This document shows positions 168 to 46,251 of a stretch of 51,081 bases of DNA, piece by piece. Source of the DNA: a bacterium. Lineage in GTDB: Bacteria; Patescibacteriota; Microgenomatia; Levybacterales; UBA12049. The stretch is from assembly GCA_030698775.1 (NCBI GenBank), contig JAUYMJ010000011.1, positions 1 through 51,081 of the forward strand, written 5' to 3'. A model generated the notes under the pieces. The model was given only the letters and a program-made list of their open reading frames with translations. It did no database searches and was not told where the DNA came from. The translations under genes and the position numbers were made by a program. Position 1 is the first letter of the stretch. The number at the start of each line of letters is the position of its first letter.

Positions 168-199
168 GAGAATTTCCAGCCTCGGTGTTTACATATATA

Positions 200-228: not shown

Positions 229-243
229 AGCCTCATATCTGCT

Positions 244-2372: not shown

Positions 2373-2429
2373 GCTTTTTTGCAAGCTCTCCGATTGACTT
2401 ACCAGGCGTGAGTTGCAATACTTATACTA

Positions 2430-4016: not shown

Positions 4017-4115
4017 GATAAAGGGTGAGTAATCTTATATAATTATCCTGGAATGTTTTTACATCTTTTACCTCTGAAAACCGTAAATGACCTGACGATA
4101 TGGAGGAGAAAATAA

Positions 4116-4700: not shown

Positions 4701-4703
4701 CGG

Positions 4704-5246: not shown

Positions 5247-5396
5247 AGGTATTTGTCAACCCTTGGAAACTAATGAGAGGAGAAGTTTTTGGAATGAAAA
5301 AGAGAAAAAGTTTGCGATAGAGACCACATTCTTTGTAGGTGTTTGAGAAAATTACCTTGACATATCATCATATGGGTGTTTAAATACAGGGGATAC

Positions 5397-5430
5397 TTGA
5401 CAACTAGCAGTACCTATGATAGAGTGCTAA
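5397..5430 (+). promoter_or_regulatory. lon promoter (TTGACA-N17-TAGAGT) overlapped by a CIRCE-like inverted repeat
   Basis: TTGACA at 5397-5402 and TAGAGT at 5420-5425. CTAGCAGTA-N9-GAGTGCTAA (5404-5430) compared with CIRCE TTAGCACTC-N9-GAGTGCTAA gives a right arm of 9/9, a left arm of 6/9 and exact N9 spacing. Confidence 0.5.
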
Positions 5431-5436
5431 TACATC

Positions 5437-9598: not shown

Positions 9599-11973
9599 TT
9601 GAGAATCTTCGTCGTTTTCTTCCCGTTTTTCTCGTAATTAGTGTTGTCACTGCCATTTTTTTCTCACCGGTTTTTTTGAAAGGAAAGATTCCTTTTCCGG
9701 GAGATCTTCTTCTCGCACAATATCAGCCTTGGCGGTCAACATCTTTTAGCGGGATTGCACCAGGTGCTGTTCCGAATAAGGCCCAGTACTTCGATACGCT
9801 GCGTCAGCTCTACCCTTGGAAGACGTTTGCTATTCAGGAGATAAAGCAGGGAAGATTCCCTCTCTGGAATCCTCATAATTTTTCAGGAACACCTCTTTTC
9901 GCAAATTTCCAATCTGCAATTCTCTATCCTCTTAACATTTTGTATCTTCTGTTGTCGCAGGTGAACGCATGGACAATCATTGTCATGCTGCAACCTTTTC
10001 TCTCGATGATTGCTGTTTTTCTTCTCTCCCGCAAATATAAGATTTCTAACTCAGGAGCAATGCTTGCATCAGTATCGTATGCATTTTGTCTCTACATGAC
10101 GAGTTTTCTTGAATATAACATTATGGGCCATTTTATGTACCTTGTCCCTTTTTCAATGCTGATTGTTGAGTATGCGTTGGCAAAAAAGTCATGGGCGTAT
10201 CCAATTCTTTCACTTCTTATCGCACTTTCTGGTTTTGCCGGTCACGCGCAACTCTTCGCCGGAACGGTTTTGTATCTTGTTTTGTACACTTTTCTCAGAA
10301 ACTTCCAAAGTGTGACAAGATTTCGAAGCGTTCTTAGAGCATATGCCGTTTTTCTTTTCTTCCTTATTCTTGGTGTTGGTATTGCTTCGGTGCAACTCCT
10401 CCCGGGAGTTGAACTTATCAACCATGCCGCAAGGTCATCGCATCCGTCAGCGTATTTTTTTACGAACCTTCTTATCCGCCCGTCGCAATTTATCCTGTAT
10501 TTAATTCCTGATCTTTTCGGAAATCCCGCAGCCAAAAACTATTTACTCCCTTTTTCCTATCCGTCTAAGGCTTTGTATGTAGGGATGAGCGCCTTTTTCC
10601 TTGCGATCCTTGCGATTGTTTCCCGTACATCAAGTCCTGTAAAAAAAACTATCCTTCTGACCACTGTCGTAGTTGGTTTGGGCGTATTCCTCAATCCAGT
10701 CTCAATGGTTTATGCATTGAACATTCCTTTTTTCTCCTCAAGTTCCCCAAGTAATTTTATCTTTTTTATTTCTTTAGGATTGTGTTTACTTGCTGGTTTT
10801 GGACTTGATAGCGTGCAGCAAAGCGTAAAAAAAACGCTCGTAGTACTTTCCGGAATATGGTCTGTGATGGTTGTGTGGATAGCAGTACTTTTCCTTTCAC
10901 GAACCCCTGTCGTGAACAACAACATTATCTATTCATTCCTCATTCTCGCATTGTTGACTGGTGGTGTCTTGTTGCGTCTCAAAATAAAAAAATTCTCAAT
11001 GATGACCGGTTTTTTTGTGCTTCTTTCGGTGTTTGACCTCTTGTATTTTTTCAATAAATTCAACTCCTTTGTCCCCGCGTCTTACGTATACCCCAACACT
11101 CCGATCGGTGAATATCTTTCATCACAGACTGGTATAGAAAGGAGCTGGGGATATAGCTATGCTGGCATCGAAGCGAATTTTGCGACGCAGCTTGGTATGT
11201 ATTCTCCTGACGGATACGACCCTCTCTATCCGAAAGAGTACGGACAGCTTATTCAGACATCGAAAGATGGCAAAATTCCGTTAGATTTCACTGATCAGAC
11301 AAGATCCGATGCGGTCATTCCGGGCGGGTTTGGAAAAACAGATATGGCTGATAATCCCTATCGTCTGCGGCTCCTCTCACTTCTTGGGGTAAAATACATT
11401 CTTGATAAAGTAGAGAATGGTTCAACGGCAGAAACATTTCCGCCTGAAATATTTGACAAGACTTCCACAATTGATGATTTTTCTGTCTTTACCTATAAGG
11501 AGGCGGCACCACGTTTTTTTCTCACCTCAAATTATGAAATATACTCCTCGGATGATGAATTAACGAAAAAACTTTATGCGAAAACGTTTGACCCGAGACA
11601 AACTGTTCTTCTTGACGAAATTCCTTCATTTCCAACACACAGAAACAAGGAGAGAAAGATAGCCAAACTTATTTCCTACAACCCCCGTTTTGTGACTATT
11701 CAAACTGAGACAAATGATTCCTCCCTTTTGTATCTATCGGATACATACTATCCGGGATGGAATGCATTTATTGATCAAAGACCGGTGAAGATATATCAGG
11801 CAAATTATGCATTCCGGGCCGTAGAAGTGCCTGCAGGACGCCATACCGTCACGTTTACCTATGAGCCAAAGTCGTTTTTATCTGGACTTTTTCTGAGTAT
11901 TGTGAGTATCATAATTCCGATGTACGGATGTGTGATTATGGTTTTTTCACGTAAGAAATCACGATTACAATGA
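9595..11973 (+). CDS. YfhO family membrane protein (putative extracytoplasmic glycosyltransferase), paralog 1
   Basis: FPGDLLLAQYQPWR, LWNPHNFSGTPLFANFQSAILYPLN, and C-terminal YYPGWNAFIDQRPV...VPAGRHTVTFTYEP. It has an ATGA overlap with the upstream gene. Confidence 0.8.
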   Translation: MIENLRRFLPVFLVISVVTAIFFSPVFLKGKIPFPGDLLLAQYQPWRSTSFSGIAPGAVPNKAQYFDTLRQLYPWKTFAIQEIKQGRFPLWNPHNFSGTPLFANFQSAILYPLNILYLLLSQVNAWTIIVMLQPFLSMIAVFLLSRKYKISNSGAMLASVSYAFCLYMTSFLEYNIMGHFMYLVPFSMLIVEYALAKKSWAYPILSLLIALSGFAGHAQLFAGTVLYLVLYTFLRNFQSVTRFRSVLRAYAVFLFFLILGVGIASVQLLPGVELINHAARSSHPSAYFFTNLLIRPSQFILYLIPDLFGNPAAKNYLLPFSYPSKALYVGMSAFFLAILAIVSRTSSPVKKTILLTTVVVGLGVFLNPVSMVYALNIPFFSSSSPSNFIFFISLGLCLLAGFGLDSVQQSVKKTLVVLSGIWSVMVVWIAVLFLSRTPVVNNNIIYSFLILALLTGGVLLRLKIKKFSMMTGFFVLLSVFDLLYFFNKFNSFVPASYVYPNTPIGEYLSSQTGIERSWGYSYAGIEANFATQLGMYSPDGYDPLYPKEYGQLIQTSKDGKIPLDFTDQTRSDAVIPGGFGKTDMADNPYRLRLLSLLGVKYILDKVENGSTAETFPPEIFDKTSTIDDFSVFTYKEAAPRFFLTSNYEIYSSDDELTKKLYAKTFDPRQTVLLDEIPSFPTHRNKERKIAKLISYNPRFVTIQTETNDSSLLYLSDTYYPGWNAFIDQRPVKIYQANYAFRAVEVPAGRHTVTFTYEPKSFLSGLFLSIVSIIIPMYGCVIMVFSRKKSRLQ

Positions 11974-13709
11974 AGCCCCACACAAAAAAAATTCTTCTAC
12001 TCCTGTTTATTTTTTCGGTTGCACTTATTCTGCGCTTTTACAAGCTTGGCGTCATACCGGACGGATTGCAGCAGGATGAATCATCGATTGGGTACAACGC
12101 ATATAGCATCCTTTTGACCGGAAAAGACGAACATGGAGTATTTCTTCCGCAAAATTTCCAGGCATTTGGTGAATATAAATTGCCGGGTTATATCTATGCT
12201 TCGGTTGTTCCGATTGCAGTTTTCGGACTGAACCCTTTTGCAATTCGCTTCGTTTCTGCAGTGTCGGGATTTCTGTCGGTTGTTGTCGTATTTTTTCTCA
12301 CAAAGACATTGATTCATTTTTTTCGTCGCGATCCAACTGTAAACGAGTCAAGGCTTGAGGAATATCTTCCCTACATCACGGCATTTTTGGTAGCAATTAA
12401 TCCGTCCCACCTGCAATTCTCACGAGCAGCGTTTGAAGTAATGCTTGCCAATTTTTTGATCCTCAGCGCAGTCCTCCTTTTCCTAAAAGGAGTCAAAAAG
12501 TCGGGAAGATTCATTTTTTTCTTCTCTGCTGTTTTTTTCTCCCTGTCGATATACACCTACAACATTGCCCGCATTTTTGTTCCGCTGTTGGTCATAGCGC
12601 TTTTTATCGTTTTCTGGAAAGATTTTTTTTCGCGGAGAAAAAGTTCACTTTTCATTTTCGCTTTGGCGTTTCTCATCTGTCTTGTCCCTTTTGCTGTTGG
12701 AGTACTGACTAAGGGCGGGGCTGATTCGACCATCGGGACGCTCATTTTCTCAAGCGCTAAAGTGCAGGCACCTCTTCTGGAGTTTCGGAGTTATTTTATT
12801 GATGTTCCTACGATACTGAATAAATTACTTTTCAACTCCTGGATTTTGACATTTTGGCAGTATCTTCAAAATGTCGCTGCAAATCTTTCCATACCATTTT
12901 TTTTCATCAAAGGATCTGGGAACGGGATCGATGGAATCGGCACGACAGGGCAGTGGTATCTTTTCGAACTTCCTCTCGTGGTTTTTGGACTGTTCCGCCT
13001 ATGGAAAGAAAAGAGTAAAGGAGCAACAATCGTCCTTTTCTGGATACTTTCACTTGTATTCATTTCCGGGTTCACGAGGGAACCTCCGCAAGCGACAAGA
13101 ACGTTTTTTCTCATTTTTCCTGTCACACTTTGTTCAGGGCTTGGTCTGCTTCAGGTAGTCAGACGTATAATAGCGATGAGGAATAACTATCTGCAACGTG
13201 TAGTAACAGGAGTTTCAGTAGCCGTTGTGGTTTATTTTGTTTTTCTTTATTTTGCCTCCTACTATTATCGATTCCCGATTTACTTTGCTAAAAACTGGAG
13301 GACGGGAGACAGGGATGTCGCTTTATTTATTAAGGCTCAGCAGGGTAACTATGACAAGATTCTCATTGATGAGAAATCGGGGTTTATGTATACCTCACTG
13401 CTCACCTATCTTCCGTTGTCTCCTCTTGAGTTTCAAAAGAGCGCTTTGTGGAAGAAGGAAGATTCGGAAGGCTTTACCCACCCTGTATCGTTTGGGAAAT
13501 ACTTAATAAAAGATATTGACTGGACGAAAGACCTGACTCCCAAAACACTTATCGTGACGACTGTGAGCAATAAACCTGTGGAGATGGAAACAGTAGAGAC
13601 GATCTCTTATCCACTGCGTCCGGTCGTCATCAATGTCGGCCAGGAAATCATGCAGTTTCCGACAAAAGATGATGCGTATGTCCTGGTCGATACGGAAAAC
13701 TTACACTAG
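11970..13709 (+). CDS. GT39/ArnT-like (PMT_2-type) membrane glycosyltransferase
   Basis: DESSIGYNAYSILLTGKDEHG in the first loop (the Asp-Glu motif region of GT-C enzymes). It is polytopic, has an ATGA overlap, and is a paralog of 13725..15407. Confidence 0.75.
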   Translation: MKPHTKKILLLLFIFSVALILRFYKLGVIPDGLQQDESSIGYNAYSILLTGKDEHGVFLPQNFQAFGEYKLPGYIYASVVPIAVFGLNPFAIRFVSAVSGFLSVVVVFFLTKTLIHFFRRDPTVNESRLEEYLPYITAFLVAINPSHLQFSRAAFEVMLANFLILSAVLLFLKGVKKSGRFIFFFSAVFFSLSIYTYNIARIFVPLLVIALFIVFWKDFFSRRKSSLFIFALAFLICLVPFAVGVLTKGGADSTIGTLIFSSAKVQAPLLEFRSYFIDVPTILNKLLFNSWILTFWQYLQNVAANLSIPFFFIKGSGNGIDGIGTTGQWYLFELPLVVFGLFRLWKEKSKGATIVLFWILSLVFISGFTREPPQATRTFFLIFPVTLCSGLGLLQVVRRIIAMRNNYLQRVVTGVSVAVVVYFVFLYFASYYYRFPIYFAKNWRTGDRDVALFIKAQQGNYDKILIDEKSGFMYTSLLTYLPLSPLEFQKSALWKKEDSEGFTHPVSFGKYLIKDIDWTKDLTPKTLIVTTVSNKPVEMETVETISYPLRPVVINVGQEIMQFPTKDDAYVLVDTENLH

Positions 13710-13724: not shown

Positions 13725-15407
13725 TCATTTTTTCGGAAGAAGCCAAGGGTTTTTTGCAGTGTCAACAAGTATAAAAATGGGATTGTTTTTCGGGTCTTTG
13801 ATCGTGTAGGTTATTTTCGTTGTTTTTGGGAATTCGGATTTAGCCCCGGCAAGAAGGATATGCGGAACAGGGATTTTATAGTCTTTTGATGTCAGGCTGA
13901 TTGACGGGAGGAAATATATTTTTCCTATTCTCGTTACTCTTGTCCATCCTCCATTCTCCTGCACCTTCTCAATGTCCTCACTTTTTTGGAAGAGAGCAGG
14001 ATCGTACTTCGTGTAGAATAAATAATAGACGTATTGCTTCGTGTCATTGACTGCGCTTGAAATAACAAGTTTGTCAAATTTATCGTGATTTGTTACGAGG
14101 TAGTCAATTAACTGTTTATATCCATAATGTGACGATGTCGCGAAGAATCTGGGAAAGTATGTCGTGTAGACGAGAAAAAATGCAACGACCTCAAAACAGA
14201 AGATTGCAAAAATTGGGCCGAATACGAGCATTCTTCGTTTTTTCACAAGGGTCCATATCTCGTAGATGCAAAATGCGCTTACCAGCTGGATCGCGGGGAT
14301 GATGGGAAGATACCGCGAGTAGTGACCCGCACCGGTCAAGCTGTCAGGAAGCGGGGAGAGAAAAATCCACAACAGGAGAAACCAGTCCTCCCTCTGTCTT
14401 CTCCTAAGGAGTAGGATAACGCCTGCAATAAAAAGCAGATATTCGGTTGTGAGAAGAAGCCCCCTGGGAGGAAGGACAGAGTATTGTGTTGGTGTACCGT
14501 TTTTCATCAGTAAGTCGGGGGAGAAGTGGTTGAGATAATTAAACGTAAATGCTGATACATAGGCGACGAATTTATTCTCAAATATCTGGCAGATACGGGG
14601 GTTGAATCTAGTCAGGCATTCACCACGCTTGTCATTTACGATATTTACAATCCCGATATCACTGGTGAGATTGACCTGACGTGATCTTGCCCTGGCTGTT
14701 GCGTTTCCACCGGTAACGAGGGGAAGGAGTAACACGAAGAAGAAAATCAAAGCAAAAACTCCCGACTTTTTCCGTAGGGAAAACTCCCGGCGGTAAAACC
14801 AAAAGAGAAGAAGGACAAGAAGCGGGGAAAGGATAATATACGAAGGATATGTGTAGACCGTTACTGCAAAAAGGAAGATTGCAGGGAAGAGAAAATATTG
14901 TTTCGTTCGCGCTGTAAGAAACAAGGTAAGCGCTGTGGTGATGAGAAACACACCGAATGTCGACTCTATCCCGGCCCTGCTCATTCCGATATGCCAAGGA
15001 TTAAATGCGACAAACCCCATAGCCACTATCCCGATTGCTGGTTTTCTCCAAAGTTGCATAGCGAGAAAATAGACAAGAAGGACTGTGAATGACCCCGCTA
15101 ACGCGGCAGGCAGCCGTACTGCGAATTCATTAAGGCCGAAAAGGGCAACTGATGGAATAACCATATATGTGTACACGGGCGGGCGATAGTCTCCAAAGCC
15201 AACAAGTGCTGTGCTTGGCTGATTATGCCCCCACTGGTCTTTTCCGGTTTTGAGGATAGAATAGGCGTCATAGCCTACATTTGCTTCGTCATTGGTGAGT
15301 CCTATCGGAATTTGACCAAGATGGGAAAGCCTAATGAATGAACCTGCGAAAAAAATAAGAATCAGGAGAATGAGGTGGCGTCCTGGAAGATCCTTGAAGA
15401 ACTGCAT
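13725..15407 (-). CDS. GT39/ArnT-like (PMT_2-type) membrane glycosyltransferase
   Basis: NDEANVGYDAYSILKTGKDQWG. It is polytopic and convergent with its paralog 11970..13709, with a 15-nt gap. Confidence 0.75.
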   Translation of the reverse strand: MQFFKDLPGRHLILLILIFFAGSFIRLSHLGQIPIGLTNDEANVGYDAYSILKTGKDQWGHNQPSTALVGFGDYRPPVYTYMVIPSVALFGLNEFAVRLPAALAGSFTVLLVYFLAMQLWRKPAIGIVAMGFVAFNPWHIGMSRAGIESTFGVFLITTALTLFLTARTKQYFLFPAIFLFAVTVYTYPSYIILSPLLVLLLFWFYRREFSLRKKSGVFALIFFFVLLLPLVTGGNATARARSRQVNLTSDIGIVNIVNDKRGECLTRFNPRICQIFENKFVAYVSAFTFNYLNHFSPDLLMKNGTPTQYSVLPPRGLLLTTEYLLFIAGVILLLRRRQREDWFLLLWIFLSPLPDSLTGAGHYSRYLPIIPAIQLVSAFCIYEIWTLVKKRRMLVFGPIFAIFCFEVVAFFLVYTTYFPRFFATSSHYGYKQLIDYLVTNHDKFDKLVISSAVNDTKQYVYYLFYTKYDPALFQKSEDIEKVQENGGWTRVTRIGKIYFLPSISLTSKDYKIPVPHILLAGAKSEFPKTTKITYTIKDPKNNPIFILVDTAKNPWLLPKK

Positions 15408-15467: not shown

Positions 15468-16418
15468 TTAGGTTTTTAACAATTTTTTTGCCAATGGAAG
15501 ATACCCAAATGACGCAAGTTGCGGATTTGTCCTCGTACTTATTTCCCTGAGCTCTTTCCTGCTAAGTTCCCTGGCTGTTTCTATATTCGTTTTCTCATCG
15601 GCTTTTCTGATAGTTCCCCAAGGGTATACTTCGGTAAGTCGTTTCCCGTTCCAGCTGGGATAGAGGAGCGTATCGCTTTTTTGAAGCCCGGTTTGCGTCA
15701 GGAATTCATCCAGTGCGGCAATCGGACCTTTGATTATGTCTTCGTATCTGACTATAAAGAAGCGGTCAGGGTACAGTTCTTTATACCAGAGCGCATATAA
15801 TTGACAGAGGATCCATCCGGTTAGATAGTGGTCCATAGACAGCGGGACGGGCCGCTTTTTGGTCTCCGCGTAAGCTGAAAAAGGGTTCCTGACAACATGA
15901 AGGATGAAAGCCTCTCCGGGGAAGTCTTGCAGGATTTTACCGGAATCAACGCCTACGATCGGACTGTAACCCATGAAGTATTTTTCTTTACCACTTCTGT
16001 TGTAATTTTCCCAGGCGTGAAACGTCGCAACGAAAAACGCCTCGACAATCCTTTTTCTCGACAACGCTCTTTGAGCCAAAAATGCGACAAATTCACTCTT
16101 TCTACCTTTTTCTGAAAAAACAAAATCTGCATCTTTGAATTTACTTACATAGGGTGTTTTGGCAAGGATTTTGCATTCCTCATCGATAATCATCTCGTAC
16201 AGTTCATCTGGAGATGCGGAATTCGGAAAAATCGGCCAGCGGTATTTTTGTGGAAAGAGACTTGAGAGATGATCGTTGACGAATTTTGTCCCGATCTGTG
16301 ATTCAAATGGATACACATGTATTTCGTTATGCCCATCGAAAAGCCGATGCGTCGTATTCCCGCCGTTCTCATACATTGCGGAAATCATGATGAGCTTAAA
16401 GTTGTCTTTTTTTACCAT
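15468..16418 (-). CDS. sulfotransferase-like protein (tentative)
   Basis: The N-terminal ISAMYENGGNTTHRLF resembles a 5'-PSB P-loop-like motif, and HVVRNPFSAYAETKKR resembles the RxPxD-type 3'-PB motif. It appears soluble. Confidence 0.5.
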   Translation of the reverse strand: MVKKDNFKLIMISAMYENGGNTTHRLFDGHNEIHVYPFESQIGTKFVNDHLSSLFPQKYRWPIFPNSASPDELYEMIIDEECKILAKTPYVSKFKDADFVFSEKGRKSEFVAFLAQRALSRKRIVEAFFVATFHAWENYNRSGKEKYFMGYSPIVGVDSGKILQDFPGEAFILHVVRNPFSAYAETKKRPVPLSMDHYLTGWILCQLYALWYKELYPDRFFIVRYEDIIKGPIAALDEFLTQTGLQKSDTLLYPSWNGKRLTEVYPWGTIRKADEKTNIETARELSRKELREISTRTNPQLASFGYLPLAKKLLKT

Positions 16419-16424
16419 ACGCCA

Positions 16425-17603
16425 TTATACCTTATACCGATAGAAAAAATTTCTTGCCCTTTTTATATTTTTCATTCCCTTTTCATAGATGAATCCATCG
16501 GTACTATCTGATGACATAAAATCAATTGAAAATATCTGGTTTCCGTTCGGCCAGATGAGTGCTCCAAGAACTGTACCTGATTTTACATCGACTGCATGAA
16601 TACCGCACTGCTGACTGGCTGAGTGAATCCCCGGTGCATATTTTTTATATCTTGGTAAAACTCTTGACGTTCCGACAAAAAGTATATTATTAACAACGCA
16701 TAACCCCCTTGTCCATCCGGGAAGCCTGGTTACGCTTTGAAAACGATTGCCATCAATAACGCCGACTTCACCGTAGCCGCTATTGTCCACCCAAATAGTA
16801 TTTTTTACAAGCCTTGCGGAGTGAGGTCTGGTTAATCCTCTCGCGATTACCTCACGCGTTTTTCCTGAAAAAACTACCCCCTTTTTATCAACCGGATAAT
16901 TCAGATGTCCCGGTCTTCGTTTTGAGATTGTTTCACTAGATGCCGTAAAATACGAATTACGTAGTGTTTTACCTGGAGCTATTGAATTCAGCTGAATAAA
17001 ATTTGCTTTCGTATTTGGTGTACCGTCTTTTCTCTCAATACACCGGGGCCACCACACGAGCCTATCTGTTCTAGGTGACTCAAACTGCACATGCACGATA
17101 CCGTTTTGGCCAACCGAAACCGCGAAAAGTTTGTTTTGTATTATTGCCAAGTCATGAAAGTAGTGGGCACCACTGAAAAATTTTGTTCTTGTAGGAACAA
17201 GGTATTTTCCAGAAGCGTTTTGCGTAGCGTCGCTTCTTTCAAGAAGTGACGTGACAGGTTTCCATTCCCAAATTTGGTTCGGGTTTCGCGTGCTGACTAT
17301 ATATACTGTTTTGCTTTCCCTGTTTACTGTTAGACCTGATGGGTGTGGAAGGCTGATGAATGATTGGCGAAGAGCAGTCGATGTTGCGCGGAGTGCTATG
17401 ACGAGATGTTCATATTCCCTTGTTACAAAAAGAGTTATTTTTGCTTTCGATAAAATATCAGCGAATGAACCGGTTAACCGAAAGCGTAAGGATTCTTTGT
17501 CTACGTCCTTCCAAGCTGTTGTATCATATACAACCTGTGAAGGGTTTCTGTATAACCGGTTTTGTGCCTCCCAAAGAATTTCGGATTTGCTTCTGACAAT
17601 CAT
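16425..17603 (-). CDS. TIGR03032/DUF4915-like protein (uncharacterised, probable beta-propeller)
   Basis: LTRPHSARLVKNTIWVDNSGYGEVGVIDGNRFQSVTRLPGWTRGLCVVNNILFVGTSRV and CGIHAVDVKSGTVL match my recollection of conserved TIGR03032 motifs. I moved the start to the ATG at 17603, which forms an ATGA overlap with the upstream stop. Confidence 0.6.
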   Translation of the reverse strand: MIVRSKSEILWEAQNRLYRNPSQVVYDTTAWKDVDKESLRFRLTGSFADILSKAKITLFVTREYEHLVIALRATSTALRQSFISLPHPSGLTVNRESKTVYIVSTRNPNQIWEWKPVTSLLERSDATQNASGKYLVPTRTKFFSGAHYFHDLAIIQNKLFAVSVGQNGIVHVQFESPRTDRLVWWPRCIERKDGTPNTKANFIQLNSIAPGKTLRNSYFTASSETISKRRPGHLNYPVDKKGVVFSGKTREVIARGLTRPHSARLVKNTIWVDNSGYGEVGVIDGNRFQSVTRLPGWTRGLCVVNNILFVGTSRVLPRYKKYAPGIHSASQQCGIHAVDVKSGTVLGALIWPNGNQIFSIDFMSSDSTDGFIYEKGMKNIKRARNFFYRYKV

Positions 17604-18292
17604 AAACGTTTCTTTAATTCCAAAAGGCCAAGATACATCCTGAATGCAGACAGTAAATTCGTCGTGCTCTTTCCTCCTTTTCGCTTTGTAAAGAGCACGG
17701 GAACTTCGAGAATCGGTATGTGGTTCCTGAAGCATTTCACCATGAGTTCTGCATCAATGAGGTCGTTTTCAGAGTCTAAGGTAATCTTTTTAAGAAGATT
17801 TTTAGGAAACACTTTTGGTGTACCGTTTACATCCCATACTGGTGTTTTCAAGAGAAAGCGGTTTTCAAGATTATACAGAATGGAGCCAAATTTTCTCATC
17901 CAGCTTTCCCTTATAATCCGAGTCGCTTTCACAACAACATCTTTGTTATTTTTCGAATAGGAGAGCATTTGGAGGAGGTCGGCTACATTTGTCCGTGCAG
18001 AATTTGTATAACATATGTATCTCCCCTTAGCTTTGGAAATGCCAAATTTTACCGCCCGTCCCCATCCCGCTCTATCAAGATAGAAGGCCCTGATAAAATC
18101 CCTAGGTTTTGCAAACTCTACTAACCGCTTATATTCGTTTGATGCCGGCCCGTTTATGATAACTAAAAGCTCGTATTGCTTTGTGATTTTTTGCAGTCCT
18201 TTAATAAATTCTTGTAGCAGCGGTACGATATGTGACTCCTGTTTGTAGACAGGGAGAATTATTGAAAAAAGCAAGCCGTTTTTTTTACGCAT
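17600..18292 (-). CDS. GT2 family glycosyltransferase
   Basis: FSIILPVYKQESHIVPLL, an N-terminal GT-A beta1 motif. 230 aa. Confidence 0.7.
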   Translation of the reverse strand: MRKKNGLLFSIILPVYKQESHIVPLLQEFIKGLQKITKQYELLVIINGPASNEYKRLVEFAKPRDFIRAFYLDRAGWGRAVKFGISKAKGRYICYTNSARTNVADLLQMLSYSKNNKDVVVKATRIIRESWMRKFGSILYNLENRFLLKTPVWDVNGTPKVFPKNLLKKITLDSENDLIDAELMVKCFRNHIPILEVPVLFTKRKGGKSTTNLLSAFRMYLGLLELKKRL

Positions 18293-19286
18293 ACCGGGTA
18301 TTTTTTTGCCAATCTAAGGTCTGACGAAGGCCATTGATAAGTGATGTGCTAGGCTTCCATCCGAGTGTCGTCCGGATAGTTTGTATACGTGCGTACCAGT
18401 CATCCTTATGATCCCACGAACGGCTCGCGAATGTACTAAATTCAGGGTTTGTCTTAAGTGATGCTATCTTTCTTACAAGGTATGCCAATTCTTTAATGGT
18501 TGTTTTTACCCCGGTACCTACATTCAATGTTTTTCCGTAGAATTTTGTGTCGAGTGATGTTGCCCCGAGGATGAATGCTGATAGTACATCATTGACAAAG
18601 ATAAAGTCCCTGGATATTTCAGGCGACACAAGTGGAGGATATTTTTTTTGGAGTGCGTTTCTTAAGAGAACAGGAATTAGCCTGTCAGGTTCTTCAAATG
18701 GTCCGTACACCGAATAAAGCCTGAGGTGGAGAATAGGAAGATTTTCTATTTGTCCCAGATATTGAGCAAGAAACGACATCGCAACTTTTGAAACGGCATA
18801 ATGGCTATTTGGGTACAGTCTTGCTGTTTCCAGTGGTCCCGCCGAATTTTGTCCGTATTCCGAGCTTGAACCTGCCTGAAGGTATGCAGAAAACCCTTGT
18901 TTTTTAAGAAGAGAAAGAATCGTAACGGCAGCTGTGAGATTTGTTACATATATTTTTTTTGTATCGTTTTGTTTTTCATACGACCCATACGCCGCGAGAT
19001 TAAAAACTGTTTGCGGTTTTAGAGACCGGATTATGTGTTCTACTTGCCGAGGTTTTGTTATGTCGCATTGAACGAGATTTTTTTTTGAGATTCCTGCAAT
19101 GAGTAATCTTCGATTTTTTTCAGGGTCTTTTGAGACACCAAAGACATCATTTCTTTTGAGAAGTAAGGATTGCAGCAAATTAATCCCGATAAATCCCCCT
19201 GCACCAAAAATGAGAATAGGGCCTTTCATGAGAGCTATTTTTGATGTCATTGATGTCGGGAGTCCATGATAGCTTTTTCTCTTCAT
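18285..19286 (-). CDS. NAD-dependent sugar epimerase/dehydratase (extended SDR)
   Basis: Rossmann motif IFGAGGFIGINL and catalytic YAVSK (YxxxK). It has an ATGA overlap with the transketolase C subunit. Confidence 0.85.
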   Translation of the reverse strand: MKRKSYHGLPTSMTSKIALMKGPILIFGAGGFIGINLLQSLLLKRNDVFGVSKDPEKNRRLLIAGISKKNLVQCDITKPRQVEHIIRSLKPQTVFNLAAYGSYEKQNDTKKIYVTNLTAAVTILSLLKKQGFSAYLQAGSSSEYGQNSAGPLETARLYPNSHYAVSKVAMSFLAQYLGQIENLPILHLRLYSVYGPFEEPDRLIPVLLRNALQKKYPPLVSPEISRDFIFVNDVLSAFILGATSLDTKFYGKTLNVGTGVKTTIKELAYLVRKIASLKTNPEFSTFASRSWDHKDDWYARIQTIRTTLGWKPSTSLINGLRQTLDWQKNTRYA

Positions 19287-20197
19287 AGCATGCGTGTGAT
19301 TTGTCGGGAAATTCCTTTGACGTCAAGATGATTCTCTTTTAAATGGAATGTATGGCTCCCATAAAGCCCAGAGTGATAGCCACGGGCAAATAGGTGTGAA
19401 AATGTATTGATATTCATTTTTTTTTTCATAAGTTTGGCGAGGATTTTTTCTCCCAATCCCCCTGAAAAACCATGCTCTTCTATTATCAATAATTTTTTCG
19501 TAGAACGCAGTGAATTGAGAAGGGGAGTCGAGAGTGTAAAAGGAATCTCTGTCACGCACCAGAGATCGACTGCGTTTGTTTGTCTCAAACTTTCCAATCC
19601 CTTCAAAACATTATGGACAAGGTAGCCAAGGACGATGACCGTAAGCTTCTTTCCTTCCCGAATTTTTCGAAGCTTACCATAGCGGAATTTTTTTATTCCG
19701 CTTGTTTGCAGAAGATTTAAGCGCGCATAAGAAGGTGTTTTGCTTAATGACATTATTTTTACAATACTTGGAATATCCTCTTTAAATGCAGGTGCAAAAA
19801 TTTTTATGTTAGGTAGGGCAGAGAAAATCGCTACGTCTTCAAGGGCATGATGTGTTTCTCCCATAATTCCATAGCCGTATCCCCCGCCGTTTCCCAGGAA
19901 TTTGACAGGAAGATTCGGGTGACAGATGTTATTTCTTACCTGCTCAAATGCTTTGAGCGTTAAGAACGGAGCGATGCTGTAAACCCACGGATGTAGACCC
20001 ATTCTCGCCATACCCGCGGCAACGTCAATCATATTTTGTTCCGCAACCCCCGCATTGATGAAACGTTTCCCAAGTATCTCACGTAAATGTTCAAACGCAT
20101 TGAAGCCCAGGTCTCCGGTTAAAAAAACTAACCGTTTATCCCGTTTCGCGAGGAGAATGATTTCCGTAACGATTTCAGTTCTCATATCTGGCGTCAA
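19283..20197 (-). CDS. transketolase, C-terminal (pyrimidine-binding) subunit
   Basis: FINAGVAEQNMIDVAAGMA and GETHHALEDVAIF motifs typical of the Pyr/C-terminal half of a split transketolase. Confidence 0.85.
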   Translation of the reverse strand: MTPDMRTEIVTEIILLAKRDKRLVFLTGDLGFNAFEHLREILGKRFINAGVAEQNMIDVAAGMARMGLHPWVYSIAPFLTLKAFEQVRNNICHPNLPVKFLGNGGGYGYGIMGETHHALEDVAIFSALPNIKIFAPAFKEDIPSIVKIMSLSKTPSYARLNLLQTSGIKKFRYGKLRKIREGKKLTVIVLGYLVHNVLKGLESLRQTNAVDLWCVTEIPFTLSTPLLNSLRSTKKLLIIEEHGFSGGLGEKILAKLMKKKMNINTFSHLFARGYHSGLYGSHTFHLKENHLDVKGISRQITRML

Positions 20198-21047
20198 TCT
20201 CTTTCATTGCTTTTTTATACAGCTCGTCGGTAAGGCGATGGTAATGCCACTCAAGTTTATTCTCCATAAATGAAACCCCAAATCCTTTAATCGTGTCACA
20301 GATGATGACTTTCGGCTTCATTGTGTTTCGGGAGCGAATTGTGTCGAATGTTTTTTGAAGCTCCTCTGGTTTGTGGCCGTTACAGGAATACGTTTCGAAT
20401 CCGAACGACTTCCATTTCTCAACTGATGCAGAATCCCCTAATACATCAGATGTTCTACCGAAGGCTTGCAGCTTATTTTTATCAATCAGGACGATGAGGT
20501 TTCCGAGTTGTCTCTTAGTGGCATATTGTGCCGCCTCCCACACCTGTCCTTCATTACACTCACCATCAGAAATCAGGCAATATACCCTTGCCGCTTTTTT
20601 GTTTTTTGGGGTTAACAGCCTCATAGACTCTGCGATACCGCAGGAGAGAGACAATCCGTGTCCCAGGCTTCCTGAATGGAACGGAATCGACCGATCGAGA
20701 TTTTGTGGGGGATGAGCCGGAAGCGTTGTCCCATCTTTATGAAACGAATAGAGTGTTGCCCGGCTCATTTTTCCCATAAAATAAAGAATGACGTATAATG
20801 AAGGTACAGCATGCCCTTTTGAAAGGATAAATTTGTCCGCTTTCCCCATCTCGGAAAAAAAGAGCACAGTGAGAATATCCAGGCAGGAGAGTGAGCTTCC
20901 AATATGTTCAGAATTTGCTTTATAAAGAAGCGTCAATAATTCTTTGTAAAGTTTTGCCCGGAATGCTGCCGAAATCAATCCTGGATAGTTGTGATTTTTT
21001 ATTGATTCGTTTGCGTTGTTGTAAGAGTTGTTGTTTTTCCTCTGCAT
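20175..21047 (-). CDS. transketolase, N-terminal (TPP-binding) subunit
   Basis: LSKGHAVPSLY, GSLGHGLS and SDGECNEGQVWEAA motifs. Confidence 0.85.
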   Translation of the reverse strand: MQRKNNNSYNNANESIKNHNYPGLISAAFRAKLYKELLTLLYKANSEHIGSSLSCLDILTVLFFSEMGKADKFILSKGHAVPSLYVILYFMGKMSRATLYSFHKDGTTLPAHPPQNLDRSIPFHSGSLGHGLSLSCGIAESMRLLTPKNKKAARVYCLISDGECNEGQVWEAAQYATKRQLGNLIVLIDKNKLQAFGRTSDVLGDSASVEKWKSFGFETYSCNGHKPEELQKTFDTIRSRNTMKPKVIICDTIKGFGVSFMENKLEWHYHRLTDELYKKAMKEIDARYEN

Positions 21048-21156
21048 ACGGCGAGATCAGAGAAATACTACTCTACGCGTTATGCTTTTGCAATAAACAG
21101 AATTGTTTGTCAAAATAAATCGTGTTATAAAGGGTGGATCAGCATTGCCCTTATTA

Positions 21157-23646
21157 ATGAAACAGTTTATAAACTTTTTGAAGGACCGGAAATCAGCGCA
21201 ACTTGTCACAATTTGCATTATAGTTCTCCTTTCTCTTTCCCAGTTGCCGAAGCTGTATTTTTCCTATGAAGATTATCACCTATTTTATATTTTGCAGTTT
21301 CCGAATGAAGCCAGAACCATGCTGCAAATACCTGAATATGCCCGGCACCTTAATTATTTTTATGTAATCGGTCCATTGTTCAGGTTATTTGGATACAGCA
21401 CACTTGGTTATTATCTTGTAGCAATTTTTTTTACTTGTCTTACCGCTGTTCTCTACTATTTTTTTGTTCTCTTGCTTACAAAAAAACGTTTTCTCGCGTT
21501 TATTGCTTCATCAATTCTTGCTACATCGTATATCGGAATAGAATCGTACACATGGAACACTGTCAATGGCATTGAGTTTGCTTTATCATCGGTTCTTTCA
21601 ATACTTATATTAGTATGTGTTATCTACTTTATTCAGACAAAAAAAAGTCTGTACTTTTTTATTTCTTTACTCCTTTATCCAATACTTTTATATTTTTTTA
21701 AAGCAAAAGCGTTAAATCTCCCGTTTGTTATCACGCTTATGCTTTTTATGTTTTCAAAATTTTCAAAGAAGTCCGCGATATTTCTTGCTGCGCCGTTTTT
21801 GTTTATCACAGGTTTTTTCTTTCTTGGGACGGTCTCAAGCGGGATAAGCAAGATGCATATCGGGATAGAGAGTAACAGTGTCATTCTTCATTTCCTGGGG
21901 ACTGTCGGTAACCTTTTTTTTCCATCGACAGTCACTGAGAGAATATTTTTAGCTCTTAAAGATTCACCCTTGTTGAAACCAATTTTAACATCCCTCACGC
22001 TGGACGGTGTGTTTGCTGCTATAGGAATAGTATGTGTCGTGCTGTTTTTACAGTTAGTATTTTTTCTGAAAAAAAAAGAACGGTTGATATTTTTTGTTTC
22101 ACTATTTTGTATTCTCCAAATTATTTTTTACATTCTCCTCGTTTTTTCAGCAGCAATAACCGAGTCAGGACTTTCGATTACGACCCTTCAGAGTGTCCAT
22201 CATAATCTTTCGGGAATCGTATTTTGGTCTACCCTACTTCTCGCAATAGGGTTACATACGCTCTGCATGAGCAAACGTACGTGGAAGAAAAAGGTTGGCA
22301 TTGTTCTCTTTGTGGTGTATATTCTCGGTGGGATTTTTCTCTCCCTTTTTGAAATTAACCGAATCTACCAAAGCAAGAGGCAGCTGGAATATTTTTATTC
22401 CCATCTTCTTTCTTTGGTTCCGCGAATAACAGAGCCCTCAGTTTTCTATGTGTTGTATAGCTATCCGAGGCCGTACTATCCTTTTAGTTCCGGTAATCCG
22501 AAAATTCAAGCAAGTTGTTATTTGGCTGGATTTTACCATACTCGCTGCTCAAATATATTTATTGCACAAACATTTGACCAGGCTATGCAGCTACTTCATG
22601 AGAACAAGATTCCTAAAAACCGTTTCTATTATCTCTACTTTGAAACAGACAGTCTTATTGATCTCACAAAGAGCACAATGAAGGTTTTGGGTGCGCCAAA
22701 GGAAACACCGATCAATCTTGACAGCGGGGAGAACGTAGGACTGAAAGATATTCCTGCATTCATGCCATTTTTTCTTGAATTCGATATGACGTCAGTACCT
22801 GATCTACGTACCATCCCTATCAAGAGCGATAAAAAGGAATTGTCCCCCTACTACGACCTTTTAATCGGTAACTACGAAGACGCGAAACAGTATTCCGCAA
22901 CCTCTGTTCCGAGTGAATCAGCTGATGAATTCACCAAACCGGGCAATGTGTTTGATGGAAATTACAAGACAATCTGGCAGCCTAGGGGTTGGACGAGAGA
23001 CGGAGTATCGATCACGCTTGATCTCGGTAAACAGAAAGATATATCACATATTGTATGGTCATCTGCCCGAATAAGTCCTTGGAAGATGCGTTCGCCTACG
23101 GAATACACGTTCCATCTCTCGGAAGATAATATGACGTGGGAGAAGGTCGTTGACGGACACCGCACTGCACCCTTGGGTACCGATGAGTATGTCGTACATA
23201 AGATTGCAGTAACAACTGCCAGATATGTCAAGATGACAATAACGAAGACCTATCTGAATTACCAGCCGGCAGTTGATGAGATAGAAGTGTTCGGAAGTGA
23301 TATCCCGGGTTTTGATTACGCGAACTATTATCTTGTCAAATCGGAACCGCTCCAACATATCCCGTCAGAAGAGCTTCTTGAGAAGCTCTTTCGCGATGTG
23401 TACAGCGACAGTATTTTTATGAACGTACAGTGGAAGATCGATAAGTCAATTATATGGACAGACGAGAGGAAAAAGAGATTTGCCGTTACTAATTTTGATT
23501 ATCCTACTCATTACAGCATCCCGATTCCGCCATCGGGGCGAATGCTTACCGCTCTTAAAGTCAGTCCTGACAATTTTCCGCTCCAGTTTTCTATCAGTAA
23601 CCCCAAAATCCGCTTGGTGACTTGGGAAGATGTGTTGGAGGAGTAG
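21157..23646 (+). CDS. polytopic membrane protein with extracytoplasmic F5/8 type C (discoidin) domain
   Basis: About 450 aa of hydrophobic segments, then FDGNYKTIWQPRGW...ITLDLGKQKDISHIVWSS...YTFHLSEDNMTWEKV...ARYVKMTITKT...VDEIEVFG. The start is uncertain: ATG 21157, TTG 21145, or the ORF-track TTG 21103. Confidence 0.75.
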   Translation: MKQFINFLKDRKSAQLVTICIIVLLSLSQLPKLYFSYEDYHLFYILQFPNEARTMLQIPEYARHLNYFYVIGPLFRLFGYSTLGYYLVAIFFTCLTAVLYYFFVLLLTKKRFLAFIASSILATSYIGIESYTWNTVNGIEFALSSVLSILILVCVIYFIQTKKSLYFFISLLLYPILLYFFKAKALNLPFVITLMLFMFSKFSKKSAIFLAAPFLFITGFFFLGTVSSGISKMHIGIESNSVILHFLGTVGNLFFPSTVTERIFLALKDSPLLKPILTSLTLDGVFAAIGIVCVVLFLQLVFFLKKKERLIFFVSLFCILQIIFYILLVFSAAITESGLSITTLQSVHHNLSGIVFWSTLLLAIGLHTLCMSKRTWKKKVGIVLFVVYILGGIFLSLFEINRIYQSKRQLEYFYSHLLSLVPRITEPSVFYVLYSYPRPYYPFSSGNPKIQASCYLAGFYHTRCSNIFIAQTFDQAMQLLHENKIPKNRFYYLYFETDSLIDLTKSTMKVLGAPKETPINLDSGENVGLKDIPAFMPFFLEFDMTSVPDLRTIPIKSDKKELSPYYDLLIGNYEDAKQYSATSVPSESADEFTKPGNVFDGNYKTIWQPRGWTRDGVSITLDLGKQKDISHIVWSSARISPWKMRSPTEYTFHLSEDNMTWEKVVDGHRTAPLGTDEYVVHKIAVTTARYVKMTITKTYLNYQPAVDEIEVFGSDIPGFDYANYYLVKSEPLQHIPSEELLEKLFRDVYSDSIFMNVQWKIDKSIIWTDERKKRFAVTNFDYPTHYSIPIPPSGRMLTALKVSPDNFPLQFSISNPKIRLVTWEDVLEE

Positions 23647-23764: not shown

Positions 23765-23831
23765 GGCCCCATCGTCCCCGATGATCGATGTCATCGGGAT
23801 CCCGATGGAAGCTACCATCGGGGCTAGTGGT
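23765..23831 (+). repeat. partial duplicate of the tRNA-Glu 5' end interrupted by twin 8-bp hairpins
   Basis: GGCCCCATCGTC (23765-23776) equals tRNA nt 1-12, and TAGTGGT (23825-23831) equals tRNA nt 13-19. Between them lie CCCGATGA-N6-TCATCGGG (23777-23798) and CCCGATGG-N6-CCATCGGG (23801-23822). Confidence 0.7.
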
Positions 23832-23844
23832 ATTAGGAGGCAAA

Positions 23845-24099
23845 ATGTTTATTACGTATATACTGCAAAGCGAAAAGAATGGCAGTTATTATATAGGAAG
23901 TACGCAAGATCTCGAAGAGAGAATTAAAAAACACAATACTGGTCAGTCTAAATATACAAAAAAACTAAAGCCTTGGATTTTAGTCTACACAGAGAAGTAT
24001 GGCACTCTTTCAGAGGCAAGAAGAAGAGAAATGTATTTAAAATCGCTAAAGAGTAAGGTTGCGATTGAAAAGCTATTAATCAATGGCCCCATCGTCTAG
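23845..24099 (+). CDS. small GIY-YIG nuclease family protein
   Basis: YILQSEKNGSYYIGSTQDLEERIKKHN (GIY...YIG with downstream R/E). SD AGGAGG at 23835-23840. The ATG at 23845 replaces the ORF-track start at 23788. The last 15 nt and the stop lie inside tRNA-Glu. Confidence 0.85.
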   Translation: MFITYILQSEKNGSYYIGSTQDLEERIKKHNTGQSKYTKKLKPWILVYTEKYGTLSEARRREMYLKSLKSKVAIEKLLINGPIV

Positions 24100-24158
24100 T
24101 GGTCCAGGACGTCGGGTTCTCATCCCGAAAATCGCGGGTTCGACTCCCGCTGGGGTCA
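24085..24158 (+). tRNA. tRNA-Glu: tRNA-Glu (anticodon CUC), no encoded CCA
   Basis: The hand-folded cloverleaf has acceptor GGCCCCA/TGGGGTC, D stem GTC/GAC, anticodon stem TCGGG/CCCGA with loop TTCTCAT, and T arm GCGGG-TTCGACT-CCCGC. Confidence 0.9.
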
Positions 24159-24245
24159 CCGAAGGGGACTATCCCTTTATCGCATTCACGAATAGCTTGA
24201 TAACACAGGCTAATCTCGAGTTTTACAACTTAAACAGTTCAATTT

Positions 24246-25710: not shown

Positions 25711-26487
25711 TTGTATAATTTGTCTGTGAAGGAAGTTTTTCTCTCAGTTGTCATACCCTCATACGATGAGATGGCGAATTTGCAAAAAGGCGTCTTGGAT
25801 CATGTGAAGTCCTTTCTCGATAAGCAAAACTATACGCACGAGGTAATCGTGGTTGACGATGGATCAAAAGACGGCAGCGATACGTTCATTGAGGATTTCG
25901 TCAAAGAGAATAAGACGTTTCGTCTCATTAAAAATCTCCATACCGGCAAGGCTGGTGCAGTCTCGACCGGTGTTCTCTCGGCAAAGGGAAAATATGTCCT
26001 ATTTACCGATATGGACCAGGCGACGCCGATTGAGGAAGTAAAAAAACTCTTACCATTTTTTGAGGAGCATTTTGATATTGTTATTGGCTCAAGAAACTCC
26101 AACAGGAAAGGTGCACCATGGACAAGGGTGCTTATGGCACGAAGCATGATGCTTCTTCGGAGCATCGTAGTCGGGATCCGGGGGATTTCAGATACGCAGT
26201 GTGGGTTCAAAATATTTAAAGGACAAGTGGCAAGGACGTTATTCTCAAGACTTAAAACGTTACACAATGGATTTGCAAAGGTGAGTGGTTCAAGTGTTTC
26301 AGCAGGGTTTGATGTGGAGCTTTTATTTCTCGCACAGAACATGGGGTATTCTATTAAAGAAGTCCATGTATCCTGGCTTTATGTTGAATCACGGCGCGTG
26401 AATCCGGTCGGTGATTCGGTTCGTGGAGTTGCCGACCTTCTGAGGATCAAGAGGAACTCATTGTTAGGTAAATACAACGCAGCATGA
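25711..26487 (+). CDS. GT2 polyprenyl-phosphate glycosyltransferase-like (Alg5/GtrB/DPM1 type)
   Basis: LSVVIPSYDEMANL, VVDDGSKDGS and FTDMDQATP (DxD). The start is uncertain (TTG 25711, TTG 25720 or GTG 25726), and TGTATAAT at 25712-25719 sits on top of it. Confidence 0.8.
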   Translation: MYNLSVKEVFLSVVIPSYDEMANLQKGVLDHVKSFLDKQNYTHEVIVVDDGSKDGSDTFIEDFVKENKTFRLIKNLHTGKAGAVSTGVLSAKGKYVLFTDMDQATPIEEVKKLLPFFEEHFDIVIGSRNSNRKGAPWTRVLMARSMMLLRSIVVGIRGISDTQCGFKIFKGQVARTLFSRLKTLHNGFAKVSGSSVSAGFDVELLFLAQNMGYSIKEVHVSWLYVESRRVNPVGDSVRGVADLLRIKRNSLLGKYNAA

Positions 26488-29203: not shown

Positions 29204-29219
29204 TACAATATGTTTAGTT

Positions 29220-32283: not shown

Positions 32284-32284
32284 G

Positions 32285-46250: not shown

Positions 46251-46251
46251 C

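Follow-up and report, generated by a model that had tools for sequence, protein, structure and literature searches.

A conserved six-gene cassette of a split transketolase, DUF4915 and a sulfotransferase-fold protein, possibly for modifying a sugar of the bacterial envelope

The modification of envelope glycans through lipid-linked donors is a known kind of system. In Gtr systems, conserved GtrA and GtrB stand beside a variable, type-specific GtrC, and the thiamine diphosphate (ThDP)-dependent enzymes YerE (yersiniose synthesis), SqwGH, and AptAB, the latter two belonging to the split-transketolase pathways of sulfoglycolysis and apiose, respectively, act on nucleotide-sugar ketones or on sulfonated or atypical ketoses. 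To our knowledge, none of YerE, SqwGH, and AptAB is linked to DUF4915 or to a sulfotransferase. Here, we describe a cassette of six genes for soluble proteins, ~5.6 kb long, in a 51-kb stretch of DNA (51,081 nucleotides, contig JAUYMJ010000011.1; 'the window' below means this whole stretch, and gene coordinates are window positions) whose Lon protease shares 84% identity with proteins of Candidatus Levybacteria (Patescibacteria/candidate phyla radiation). The cassette genes form a conserved functional unit in which the transketolase (TK), the family 2 glycosyltransferase (GT2), and the sulfotransferase (ST) are non-canonical, and polytopic membrane proteins, of glycosyltransferase fold C (GT-C) families where identifiable, cluster beside it. 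Our preferred reading, to which we give a little less than an even chance, is that the cassette is a widespread, horizontally mobile donor-modification module of a Gtr/Arn-like lipid-linked glycosylation system and provides an unusual sugar, possibly sulfated and two-carbon-modified, for an envelope acceptor.

As in the Arn and Gtr systems, a short-chain dehydrogenase/reductase (SDR) of the nucleoside diphosphate (NDP)-sugar type, an ArnC/GtrB-related GT-A protein, and a GT-C transferase occur in one locus. Some loci encode the cassette SDR and a GtrB-like transferase as one polypeptide, reminiscent of the ArnA-to-ArnC logic, and unrelated, variable GT-C partners adjoin a conserved, putative donor module, as in Gtr. 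Unlike these systems, however, the cassette has no aminotransferase, formyltransferase, deformylase, or GtrA/ArnEF flippase, its GT-A protein lacks the DXD motif and the transmembrane (TM) helices, and its ThDP enzyme, sulfotransferase-fold protein, and NHL propeller have no counterpart there. The kind of system is known; the enzyme set is new.

The earlier note on this DNA had described six tightly linked genes on the minus strand followed by a GT39-like gene, and its coordinates, overlaps, and gaps were all reproduced from the sequence and the list of open reading frames (ORFs). The seven co-directional genes are as follows.

20175-21047, minus strand: TktN, PP-domain (ThDP-binding) subunit of a split transketolase-like enzyme, 290 aa
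19283-20197, minus strand: TktC, Pyr/C-terminal subunit of the split transketolase-like enzyme, 304 aa, TTG start
18285-19286, minus strand: extended SDR of the NDP-sugar epimerase/dehydratase type, 333 aa
17600-18292, minus strand: GT2-like protein of GT-A fold, ArnC/GtrB-related, without DXD, 230 aa, soluble
16425-17603, minus strand: DUF4915 protein, predicted NHL-type six-bladed beta-propeller, 392 aa from the ATG at 17603
15468-16418, minus strand: ST-like protein, sulfotransferase fold with an atypical 5'-phosphosulfate loop, 316 aa
13725-15407, minus strand: GT-C protein (PMT_2/GT39-like), polytopic membrane glycosyltransferase, 560 aa

The junctions from TktN to the ST-like gene are overlaps of 23, 4 (ATGA), 8, and 4 (ATGA) nt and then a 6-nt gap, and 60 nt separate the ST-like gene from the GT-C gene. 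TktC might alternatively start at an in-frame ATG (20185) 12 nt inside, which would shorten its overlap with TktN to 11 nt. The mechanical DUF4915 ORF extends to 17735; the start of the 392-aa form is backed by the alignment of homologues. Promoter and terminator scans of the cassette region returned only chance-level signals, and by hydropathy none of the six cassette proteins contains a TM segment.

For the DUF4915 protein (at ~50% identity) and the ST-like protein (at ~55-65%), homologues run into the thousands. When one genome per species was scanned, close DUF4915 relatives turned up in 246 genomes; the best 80 loci, together with five from an exact-protein look-up, gave 82 non-redundant loci, whose six-frame ORFs were searched with the window proteins. 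Of the 82, 81 contain the trio of GT2-like, DUF4915, and ST-like genes, which is the invariant core of the cassette; the exception is cut off at a contig end. All six genes occur in 59 loci, and most of the 23 incomplete ones run off contig ends. Among those with enough flank, the genuine exceptions are one Lloydbacteria and two Chitinophaga/Chitinophagales loci with the trio alone; two further loci have no SDR. From metagenomes came another 26 loci of at least 4 kb, each with whatever part of the cassette its contig spans (14 carry all six genes). The carriers span more than 15 phyla and more than 240 species-level genomes, from Patescibacteria, Chloroflexota, Acidobacteriota, Planctomycetota, Cyanobacteria, Melainabacteria, and Bacteroidota to Verrucomicrobiota, Nitrospinota, Desulfobacterota, Actinomycetota, Poribacteria, Latescibacterota, Dormibacterota, and Firmicutes. 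Nine gene orders were found, the commonest being TktN-TktC-GT2-DUF4915-STL-SDR (44 loci, STL denoting the ST-like gene); the order of the window recurs in two other loci (L004 and L068), and TktC comes last in Bacteroidota. Because the same genes co-occur in ~108 independent loci, their linkage is far beyond chance, and their repeated rearrangement with retention implies that the cassette is a functional unit. BLAST clustering of the flanking ORFs yielded no seventh universal gene (the largest cluster, a generic GT4, is present in 23 loci) and no conserved transporter, kinase, isomerase, or regulator.

Of the two split-transketolase subunits, TktN matches Pfam Transketolase_N (1.7e-32) and TktC matches Transket_pyr (8.6e-25) and Transketolase_C; the closest solved structures are those of the Carboxydothermus hydrogenoformans split TK (ChTK), 6YAK for TktN (2e-48) and 6YAJ for TktC (6e-32). 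In E. coli numbering, the equivalents of His26, His66, His100, and His261 are conserved in the window TktN and in 66-68 of 68 cassette homologues, the Asp/Asn ligands of Mg are kept in a motif xDxE...N in which Ser replaces the first Gly of GDG (68 homologues), and the equivalents of Glu411 and His473 are invariant in 69 of 69 TktC homologues. The substrate side of the pocket is altered in the same 69 sequences. The equivalent of His461, which we take to be one of the residues that specify sugar phosphates or aldoses, is Gly in every one of them, Ala, Asn, or Met stands in place of Asp469 and Met, Asn, or Thr in place of Ser385, and position 520, canonically Arg, is Lys in 61 of the 69 and Leu in the window; the presumed equivalent of Arg358, placed by motif outside the coverage of the reference alignment, is kept. 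R358, S385, D469, and R520 are specificity residues of TK, and none of the substitutions engineered at these positions in the E. coli enzyme is present in ChTK (PMC7661550). ChTK and the cassette enzyme thus have in common the two-chain PP plus Pyr/C architecture and all of the cofactor-binding and catalytic His and Glu residues, whereas ChTK is canonical at Ser385, His461, Asp469, and Arg520, at which the cassette enzyme has Gly461, no Asp469 or Ser385, and Lys or Leu520, and a constant linkage to glycan-type genes further sets the cassette enzyme apart. Since the cofactor-binding and catalytic residues are kept and the specificity residues His461, Asp469, and Ser385 are lost, a non-canonical substrate is expected: judged from these residues, the enzyme should be capable of ThDP chemistry, though with substrates other than the usual sugar phosphates.

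In some lineages the housekeeping TK is itself a split one (PMC7661550), so the enzyme might be an ordinary pentose-phosphate TK that adjoins glycan genes by coincidence. This explanation is largely refuted and we find it hardly credible, because the same adjacency recurs in ~85 loci of unrelated phyla, including cyanobacteria and large genomes that need a TK of their own, because of the loss of His461 and Asp469, and because the island that bears the cassette is absent at the syntenic site of a relative (see below). The proposal of the earlier note that this TK is not a housekeeping enzyme is therefore borne out: it travels with the other cassette genes across phyla in nine orders, its pocket residues are lost, and the island is accessory. 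A second alternative is the catabolism of a rare or sulfonated sugar, in the manner of SqwGH sulfoglycolysis or the AptAB apiose pathway, where a split TK of altered specificity together with a dehydrogenase is typical; the modified pocket of the cassette TK is in line with this. However, such a pathway does not account for the absence of a conserved transporter, kinase, isomerase, or regulator, the sulfotransferase-fold and GT-A-fold proteins would be unexpected in it, the SDR is of the NDP-sugar class, and the context is one of glycan biosynthesis, so that we rate catabolism as very improbable. SqwGH and AptAB differ from the cassette enzyme in being catabolic, and YerE differs in belonging to the acetolactate-synthase-like family and not to the TK family.

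The SDR matches Pfam Epimerase (8e-43) and GDP_Man_Dehyd (3e-34) and has the Rossmann and catalytic motifs GAGGFIG, GSSSEYG, and PNSHYAVSK (family consensus GxxGxxG, GSSSEYG, and PNSxYAxxK). Its best relatives in the PDB are dTDP-glucose 4,6-dehydratase and UDP-sugar 4-epimerases with similar scores, none of them decisive, and against the NCBIfam equivalogs it scores far below every cut-off. In two loci (L088, 7329-9287; L068, 7185-9197), the SDR orthologue continues into a GtrB/ArnC-like GT2 that ends in two TM helices, a fusion that ties the SDR to polyprenyl-phosphate sugar synthesis. A paralogous SDR-GT2 fusion, also with two C-terminal TM helices, follows the cassette in a third locus (L047, 12789-14777). 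At the DXD position of the fused GT2, L088 has SGS and L047 has DGD.

The stand-alone GT2-like protein of the trio matches Pfam Glycos_transf_2 (4e-9; 37 bits against a cut-off of 23.3) and its best PDB alignments are to ArnC, over residues 9-210, and to GtrB, but N-S-A stands where ArnC has DAD and GtrB has DaD, and I-N-G where they have DDG. The family consensus over 83 sequences is CYTNsART, with xNG in place of DDG. A RxxGxS[KT] segment near the C-terminus is kept. The mean hydropathy reaches at most 1.12 over any 19 residues, so there is no TM segment. Without DXD, DDG, and TM helix, the protein is therefore no canonical metal-dependent NDP-sugar transferase; from its sequence it may be metal-independent, or may bind a carrier-linked sugar for fused or adjacent partners, and in one protein (P0245) it is fused to DUF4915. 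The annotation of this gene as a GT2 thus stands as to fold and relationship (GT-A, ArnC/GtrB-related), but not as to an ordinary glycosyltransferase, the motifs being replaced family-wide. As for the earlier idea that the coupling of TK, SDR, and GT2 suggests the synthesis of a modified sugar rather than pentose-phosphate metabolism, the pentose-phosphate role falls away, the GT2 is not an ordinary one, and the sugar product is putative.

The 316-aa ST-like protein had been proposed to have sulfotransferase-like motifs for binding 3'-phosphoadenosine 5'-phosphosulfate (PAPS). It does match a sulfotransferase profile, Pfam Sulfotransfer_3, just above the cut-off (1.7e-6; 28.9 bits against 27) and over residues 136-247 only, which makes the match marginal; no NCBIfam model matches. 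The top 40 Foldseek matches in the PDB of its AlphaFold2 model (pLDDT 84) are all sulfotransferases (TPST2, CurM ST, OLS ST, Stf1), and those of CurM and OLS (4GBM, 4GOX) and of the TPST type have the same fold with E-values of 1e-6 to 1e-8. The CurM and OLS ST domains are also the sole PDB relatives at the sequence level, although the profile matches are marginal (E 0.01-0.03). With these domains and the TPST-type enzymes the protein has the Dx-H-x-[DE]-I and RNP segments in common. The 3'-phosphate segment R177-N-P (RNPFS) is invariant after a beta-strand, as are Ser181 and Thr186 (+9), and the Ser at +8 is Glu or Asp. The 5'-phosphosulfate strand-loop-helix, SAMYENGGNTTHR, is invariant as well, but its loop, YENGGNTT, contains no Lys or Arg, and the family does not conform to the canonical P[KR]SG[ST][ST]. 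The PAPS-binding motifs are thus present by half: the fold is that of a sulfotransferase and the 3'-phosphate motif begins with RNP, but the 5' loop is not canonical, which leaves PAPS use by this protein plausible. From CurM, OLS, and TPST it differs in having YENGGNTT for PRSG[ST][ST] and Glu/Asp followed by Thr for the Ser at +8, and from CurM and OLS also in standing alone instead of being a domain of a polyketide synthase (PKS).

The 392-aa protein had been assigned to TIGR03032/DUF4915. Its match to Pfam DUF4915 (PF16261) is strong (8e-52; 176.9 bits against a cut-off of 35, residues 46-364), and the motifs quoted for it are invariant, but it scores 120.6 bits against NCBIfam TIGR03032, below the cut-off of 251.5, which indicates that it is a Pfam DUF4915 protein of a separate subfamily. 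Eighty columns are invariant across 20 DUF4915 sequences from many phyla, many of them Arg, His, Asn, or Glu, in motifs such as TREYEH, PHPSG, TRNPNQ, TRPHSAR, NSGYGE, and LPGWTRGL; such residues would fit an enzyme that binds an anionic substrate. The structure prediction suggested for this protein was run and gave a confident all-beta AlphaFold2 model (pLDDT 88, pTM 0.91). Foldseek relates the model to YWTD and NHL propellers, peptidyl-alpha-hydroxyglycine alpha-amidating lyase (PAL, 3FVZ), and strictosidine synthase (2FP8) at TM-scores of ~0.5, and the profile matches NHL repeats weakly; by this model, the protein is an NHL-type six-bladed propeller. The likeness to PAL and strictosidine synthase lies in the six blades and the weak NHL-repeat signal, whereas the TM-scores of ~0.4-0.5 and identities of 11-14% set it apart, and the invariant residues of DUF4915 have no described counterpart in them. 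No further Pfam family was found for DUF4915 or the ST-like protein up to an E-value of 10. A search of 1.84 billion representatives gave 1,032 DUF4915 clusters at 50% identity.

DUF4915 and a sulfotransferase are joined in other ways as well. A cassette-type ST-like protein is fused to DUF4915 in P0264, and in the distant, canonical branch of DUF4915 (~30% identity, Pfam ~400 bits), P0383, P0386, and P0366 are fusions of Sulfotransfer_3 with DUF4915. The fused ST domains of P0383 and P0366 have canonical loops, PRSGAA and PRSGSS. P0366 (L093, 1917-5186; 1089 aa) joins three domains, one resembling Asp/Asn beta-hydroxylase, a canonical Sulfotransfer_3 one, and DUF4915, in an order that suggests a hydroxylate-sulfate-process sequence in one polypeptide; the contigs of P0366 and P0386 are too short for informative gene context. 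Since the fusions include canonical ST domains, DUF4915 is a general sulfotransferase partner, and the functional context for DUF4915 that the sulfotransferase gene seemed to offer is confirmed by an invariant adjacency and by independent fusions. A metagenomic scan with a single protein returned mostly the same cassette type; one distant member (L151) is neighboured only by a divergent GT2.

These data bear on a further alternative, in which the ST, like those of CurM and OLS, activates its substrate: the sulfate that it adds would serve as a leaving group and be expelled by DUF4915 acting as a lyase or cyclase, giving an unsaturated, anhydro, or cyclised sugar rather than a sulfated one. The CurM and OLS domains being the only sequence-level PDB relatives, and among the top fold matches, speaks for it, as do the resemblance of the DUF4915 fold to NHL-type enzymes including PAL and strictosidine synthase and the ST-DUF4915 fusions, one of them with the hydroxylase-like domain. 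However, the sequence matches to the PDB are marginal and the propeller matches are generic, the top ones being non-enzymatic YWTD domains, and we consider this account doubtful. A fuller form of it, in which DUF4915 is the catalytic partner of activating sulfotransferases and works together with TK-like C2 transfer on a carrier-linked, non-phosphorylated sugar, is in our view likewise improbable; the product, displayed on the envelopes of bacteria in many phyla, Patescibacteria among them, would be a novel monosaccharide that is chain-extended or branched, anhydro or unsaturated.

To describe the membrane partners, we counted proteins of at least 380 aa with at least seven hydrophobic segments within 300 bp of the cassette. 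They occur on 38 of 130 flank sides, compared with 2.9 expected from the density in the distal flanks (Poisson P ~3e-29), that is, at a rate of 29% per gene versus roughly 4%. Fourteen of 37 such neighbours match GT-C or related families (PMT_2, eight; YfhO, three; GT22, DUF6044, and DUF6077, one each), and by jackhmmer clustering the adjacent membrane proteins are mutually unrelated; by analogy, these variable neighbours resemble the type-specific GtrC beside conserved GtrAB. In the window, the neighbour is the GT-C protein downstream of the ST-like gene, which matches PMT_2 (6e-9) and PMT (1.7e-7), both above the cut-off, and has at least eight hydrophobic segments.

The cassette lies in a very large glycan locus that runs from 7961 onward, between two polytopic membrane genes. 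Fourteen large polytopic membrane proteins of GT-C type, an unusual density, are encoded within 7961-49884, together with about eight GT2/GT4 genes (several GT2, one GT4) and a flippase, as follows.

13725-15407, 27626-29203, 29193-30716, 48394-49884: PMT_2 membrane proteins (Pfam)
9595-11973, 39316-41664, 42986-45268: YfhO membrane proteins (Pfam)
7961-9598, 30718-32283, 32231-33979: PTPS_related membrane proteins (Pfam)
46225-47652: DUF2079 membrane protein (Pfam)
11970-13709, 21103-23646, 26484-27698: membrane proteins whose membrane part has no Pfam match
21103-23646 (one of the preceding three), plus strand, divergent from the cassette: 847-aa membrane protein with an F5/8 type C (discoidin) domain
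34714-36174: Wzx-like flippase

The 847-aa protein, separated from TktN by a 55-nt intergenic spacer, has ~9 hydrophobic segments in residues 30-413 and as its sole Pfam match F5_F8_type_C (4e-13, residues 606-716), a carbohydrate-binding domain type; it is possibly a second membrane partner of the cassette, its membership being uncertain. Beyond it, at 23788-24160, a gene for a small GIY-YIG domain protein (103 aa) is followed by a slightly overlapping tRNA-Glu(CTC); this pair halves the glycan island and may mark an integration or recombination point. The window encodes no second transketolase and no PAPS-synthesis gene (Sat/CysDN/CysC) within its 51 kb. A close, Levybacteria-like relative (L095, 1-12421; Lon 87% identical) is syntenic with window positions 1-7866, having in common the genes for Fic, a fatty-acid desaturase, a ~525-aa protein with no Pfam match, SNase, DUF1003, and Lon. 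The synteny stops right after Lon, where the relative continues with hydrolase, APH, acetyltransferase, PycTM, LexA, and resolvase genes and has no glycan island, so that the more than 40 kb downstream of Lon form a variable region between the two. Because unrelated genes occupy the syntenic site, the cassette-bearing island is accessory.

On the preferred reading, that of a donor-modification module for lipid-linked glycosylation, the steps could be arranged as follows, their order, substrate, and product all being what we infer. First, oxidation by the extended SDR would turn a sugar linked to NDP or to polyprenyl phosphate into a carbonyl intermediate. Second, the split ThDP enzyme would add or remove a two-carbon ketol unit on this non-phosphorylated substrate. 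Third, the GT-A-like, DUF4915, and ST-fold trio would work as one unit, in which the ST-fold protein sulfates a hydroxyl, DUF4915 next acts on the anionic intermediate, and the ArnC-like protein binds or hands over the carrier-linked sugar; the sulfate could be either a final decoration or a leaving group. Fourth, the product would be flipped and then used by the variable GT-C enzymes. A sulfated envelope glycan, as the earlier note had raised, would be one possible outcome.

Several observations weigh against this reading. Each of its chemical steps is deduced from family membership; the ST-like protein lacks the Lys/Arg of the 5'-phosphosulfate-binding loop, and the GT2-like protein, lacking DXD, may be no glycosyltransferase at all. 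The six cassette proteins are all soluble, no polytopic membrane protein adjoins the cassette in about half of the loci, and 23 of the 37 membrane neighbours have no Pfam family or an unrelated one (three are unrelated transporters). Clustering of the flanks found neither a flippase of the GtrA/ArnEF type nor a canonical polyprenyl-phosphate glycosyltransferase as a constant member, the canonical GtrB-like domain occurring as an SDR fusion in some loci only. The Chitinophagales trio stands among secretion-related genes without TK or SDR, and the distant fusion P0383 (L092, 6620-11746) lies directly downstream of an SsuA/NMT1-like ABC importer and not among glycan genes. The importer's binding protein, which has an OmpA domain, belongs to the NMT1/SsuA/phosphonate-binding type; this setting relates to sulfur or organo-anions.

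Some of the same observations would suit a soluble small molecule as the product, such as a sulfated or glycosylated metabolite, a cofactor, or a compatible solute, with the membrane neighbours being incidental or exporters. No TM segment in the six proteins, no constant membrane family, the trio on its own in Chitinophagales, and the importer beside the distant fusion agree with this idea, as does a Gemmataceae cassette near PKS genes. However, polytopic proteins are enriched beside the cassette and several belong to recognisable GT-C families, the SDR is found fused to a membrane-anchored GtrB/ArnC-like transferase, and the cassette lies inside glycan loci both in the window and in other Patescibacteria. 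We regard a soluble product as rather unlikely.

Several loci carry additional genes in or beside the cassette. In three Patescibacteria (L006, 8342-9301; L091, 18014-18871; L090, 18131-18988), an S-adenosylmethionine (SAM)-methyltransferase gene separates TktC from the GT2-like gene. The L091 cassette is additionally interrupted by a ~5-kb insert of LexA/N6_N4 methylase, Endonuclease_7, DUF4238, and helix-turn-helix genes, and a B12-binding radical SAM gene adjoins the ST-like gene. Upstream of the cassette of L004 (1-2001), a separate ThDP enzyme of the acetolactate-synthase/YerE type (TPP_enzyme_N/M/C) is followed by an SDR and accompanied by radical SAM and methyltransferase genes; this looks like a second, independent module of the branched-sugar type in the same locus. 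In a metagenomic copy (L087, 6445-7545), a DegT/DnrJ/EryC1 aminotransferase gene runs into the beginning of TktN.

In the literature searched, we found no mention of DUF4915, TIGR03032, PF16261, or CHP03032, and no description of the gene combination of the cassette (transketolase with sulfotransferase, GT-C, O-antigen, or branched sugar). A split TK beside DegT aminotransferases has been reported, without explanation, in the wps-2 cluster of Actinoplanes (PMC13390465); this is not the same cassette, its context being different and devoid of DUF4915. A paper on Anabaena that was considered as a description of the cassette concerns other genes.

DUF4915/TIGR03032, an extremely conserved family of ~1,000 clusters at 50% identity, gains its first functional context from these data, as a sulfotransferase partner in a defined five-partner gene set, and its function is thereby directly testable. 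The routine labels 'transketolase', 'glycosyltransferase family 2', and 'sulfotransferase' are misleading for the cassette genes, and any metabolic reconstruction, for Patescibacteria or other uncultured lineages, in which the cassette TK counts as pentose-phosphate capacity would be wrong. The occurrence of this compact mobile module in genome-reduced Patescibacteria as well points to a portable envelope trait and to unexplored chemistry, in which ThDP-dependent C-C chemistry and sulfotransfer would meet on a sugar.

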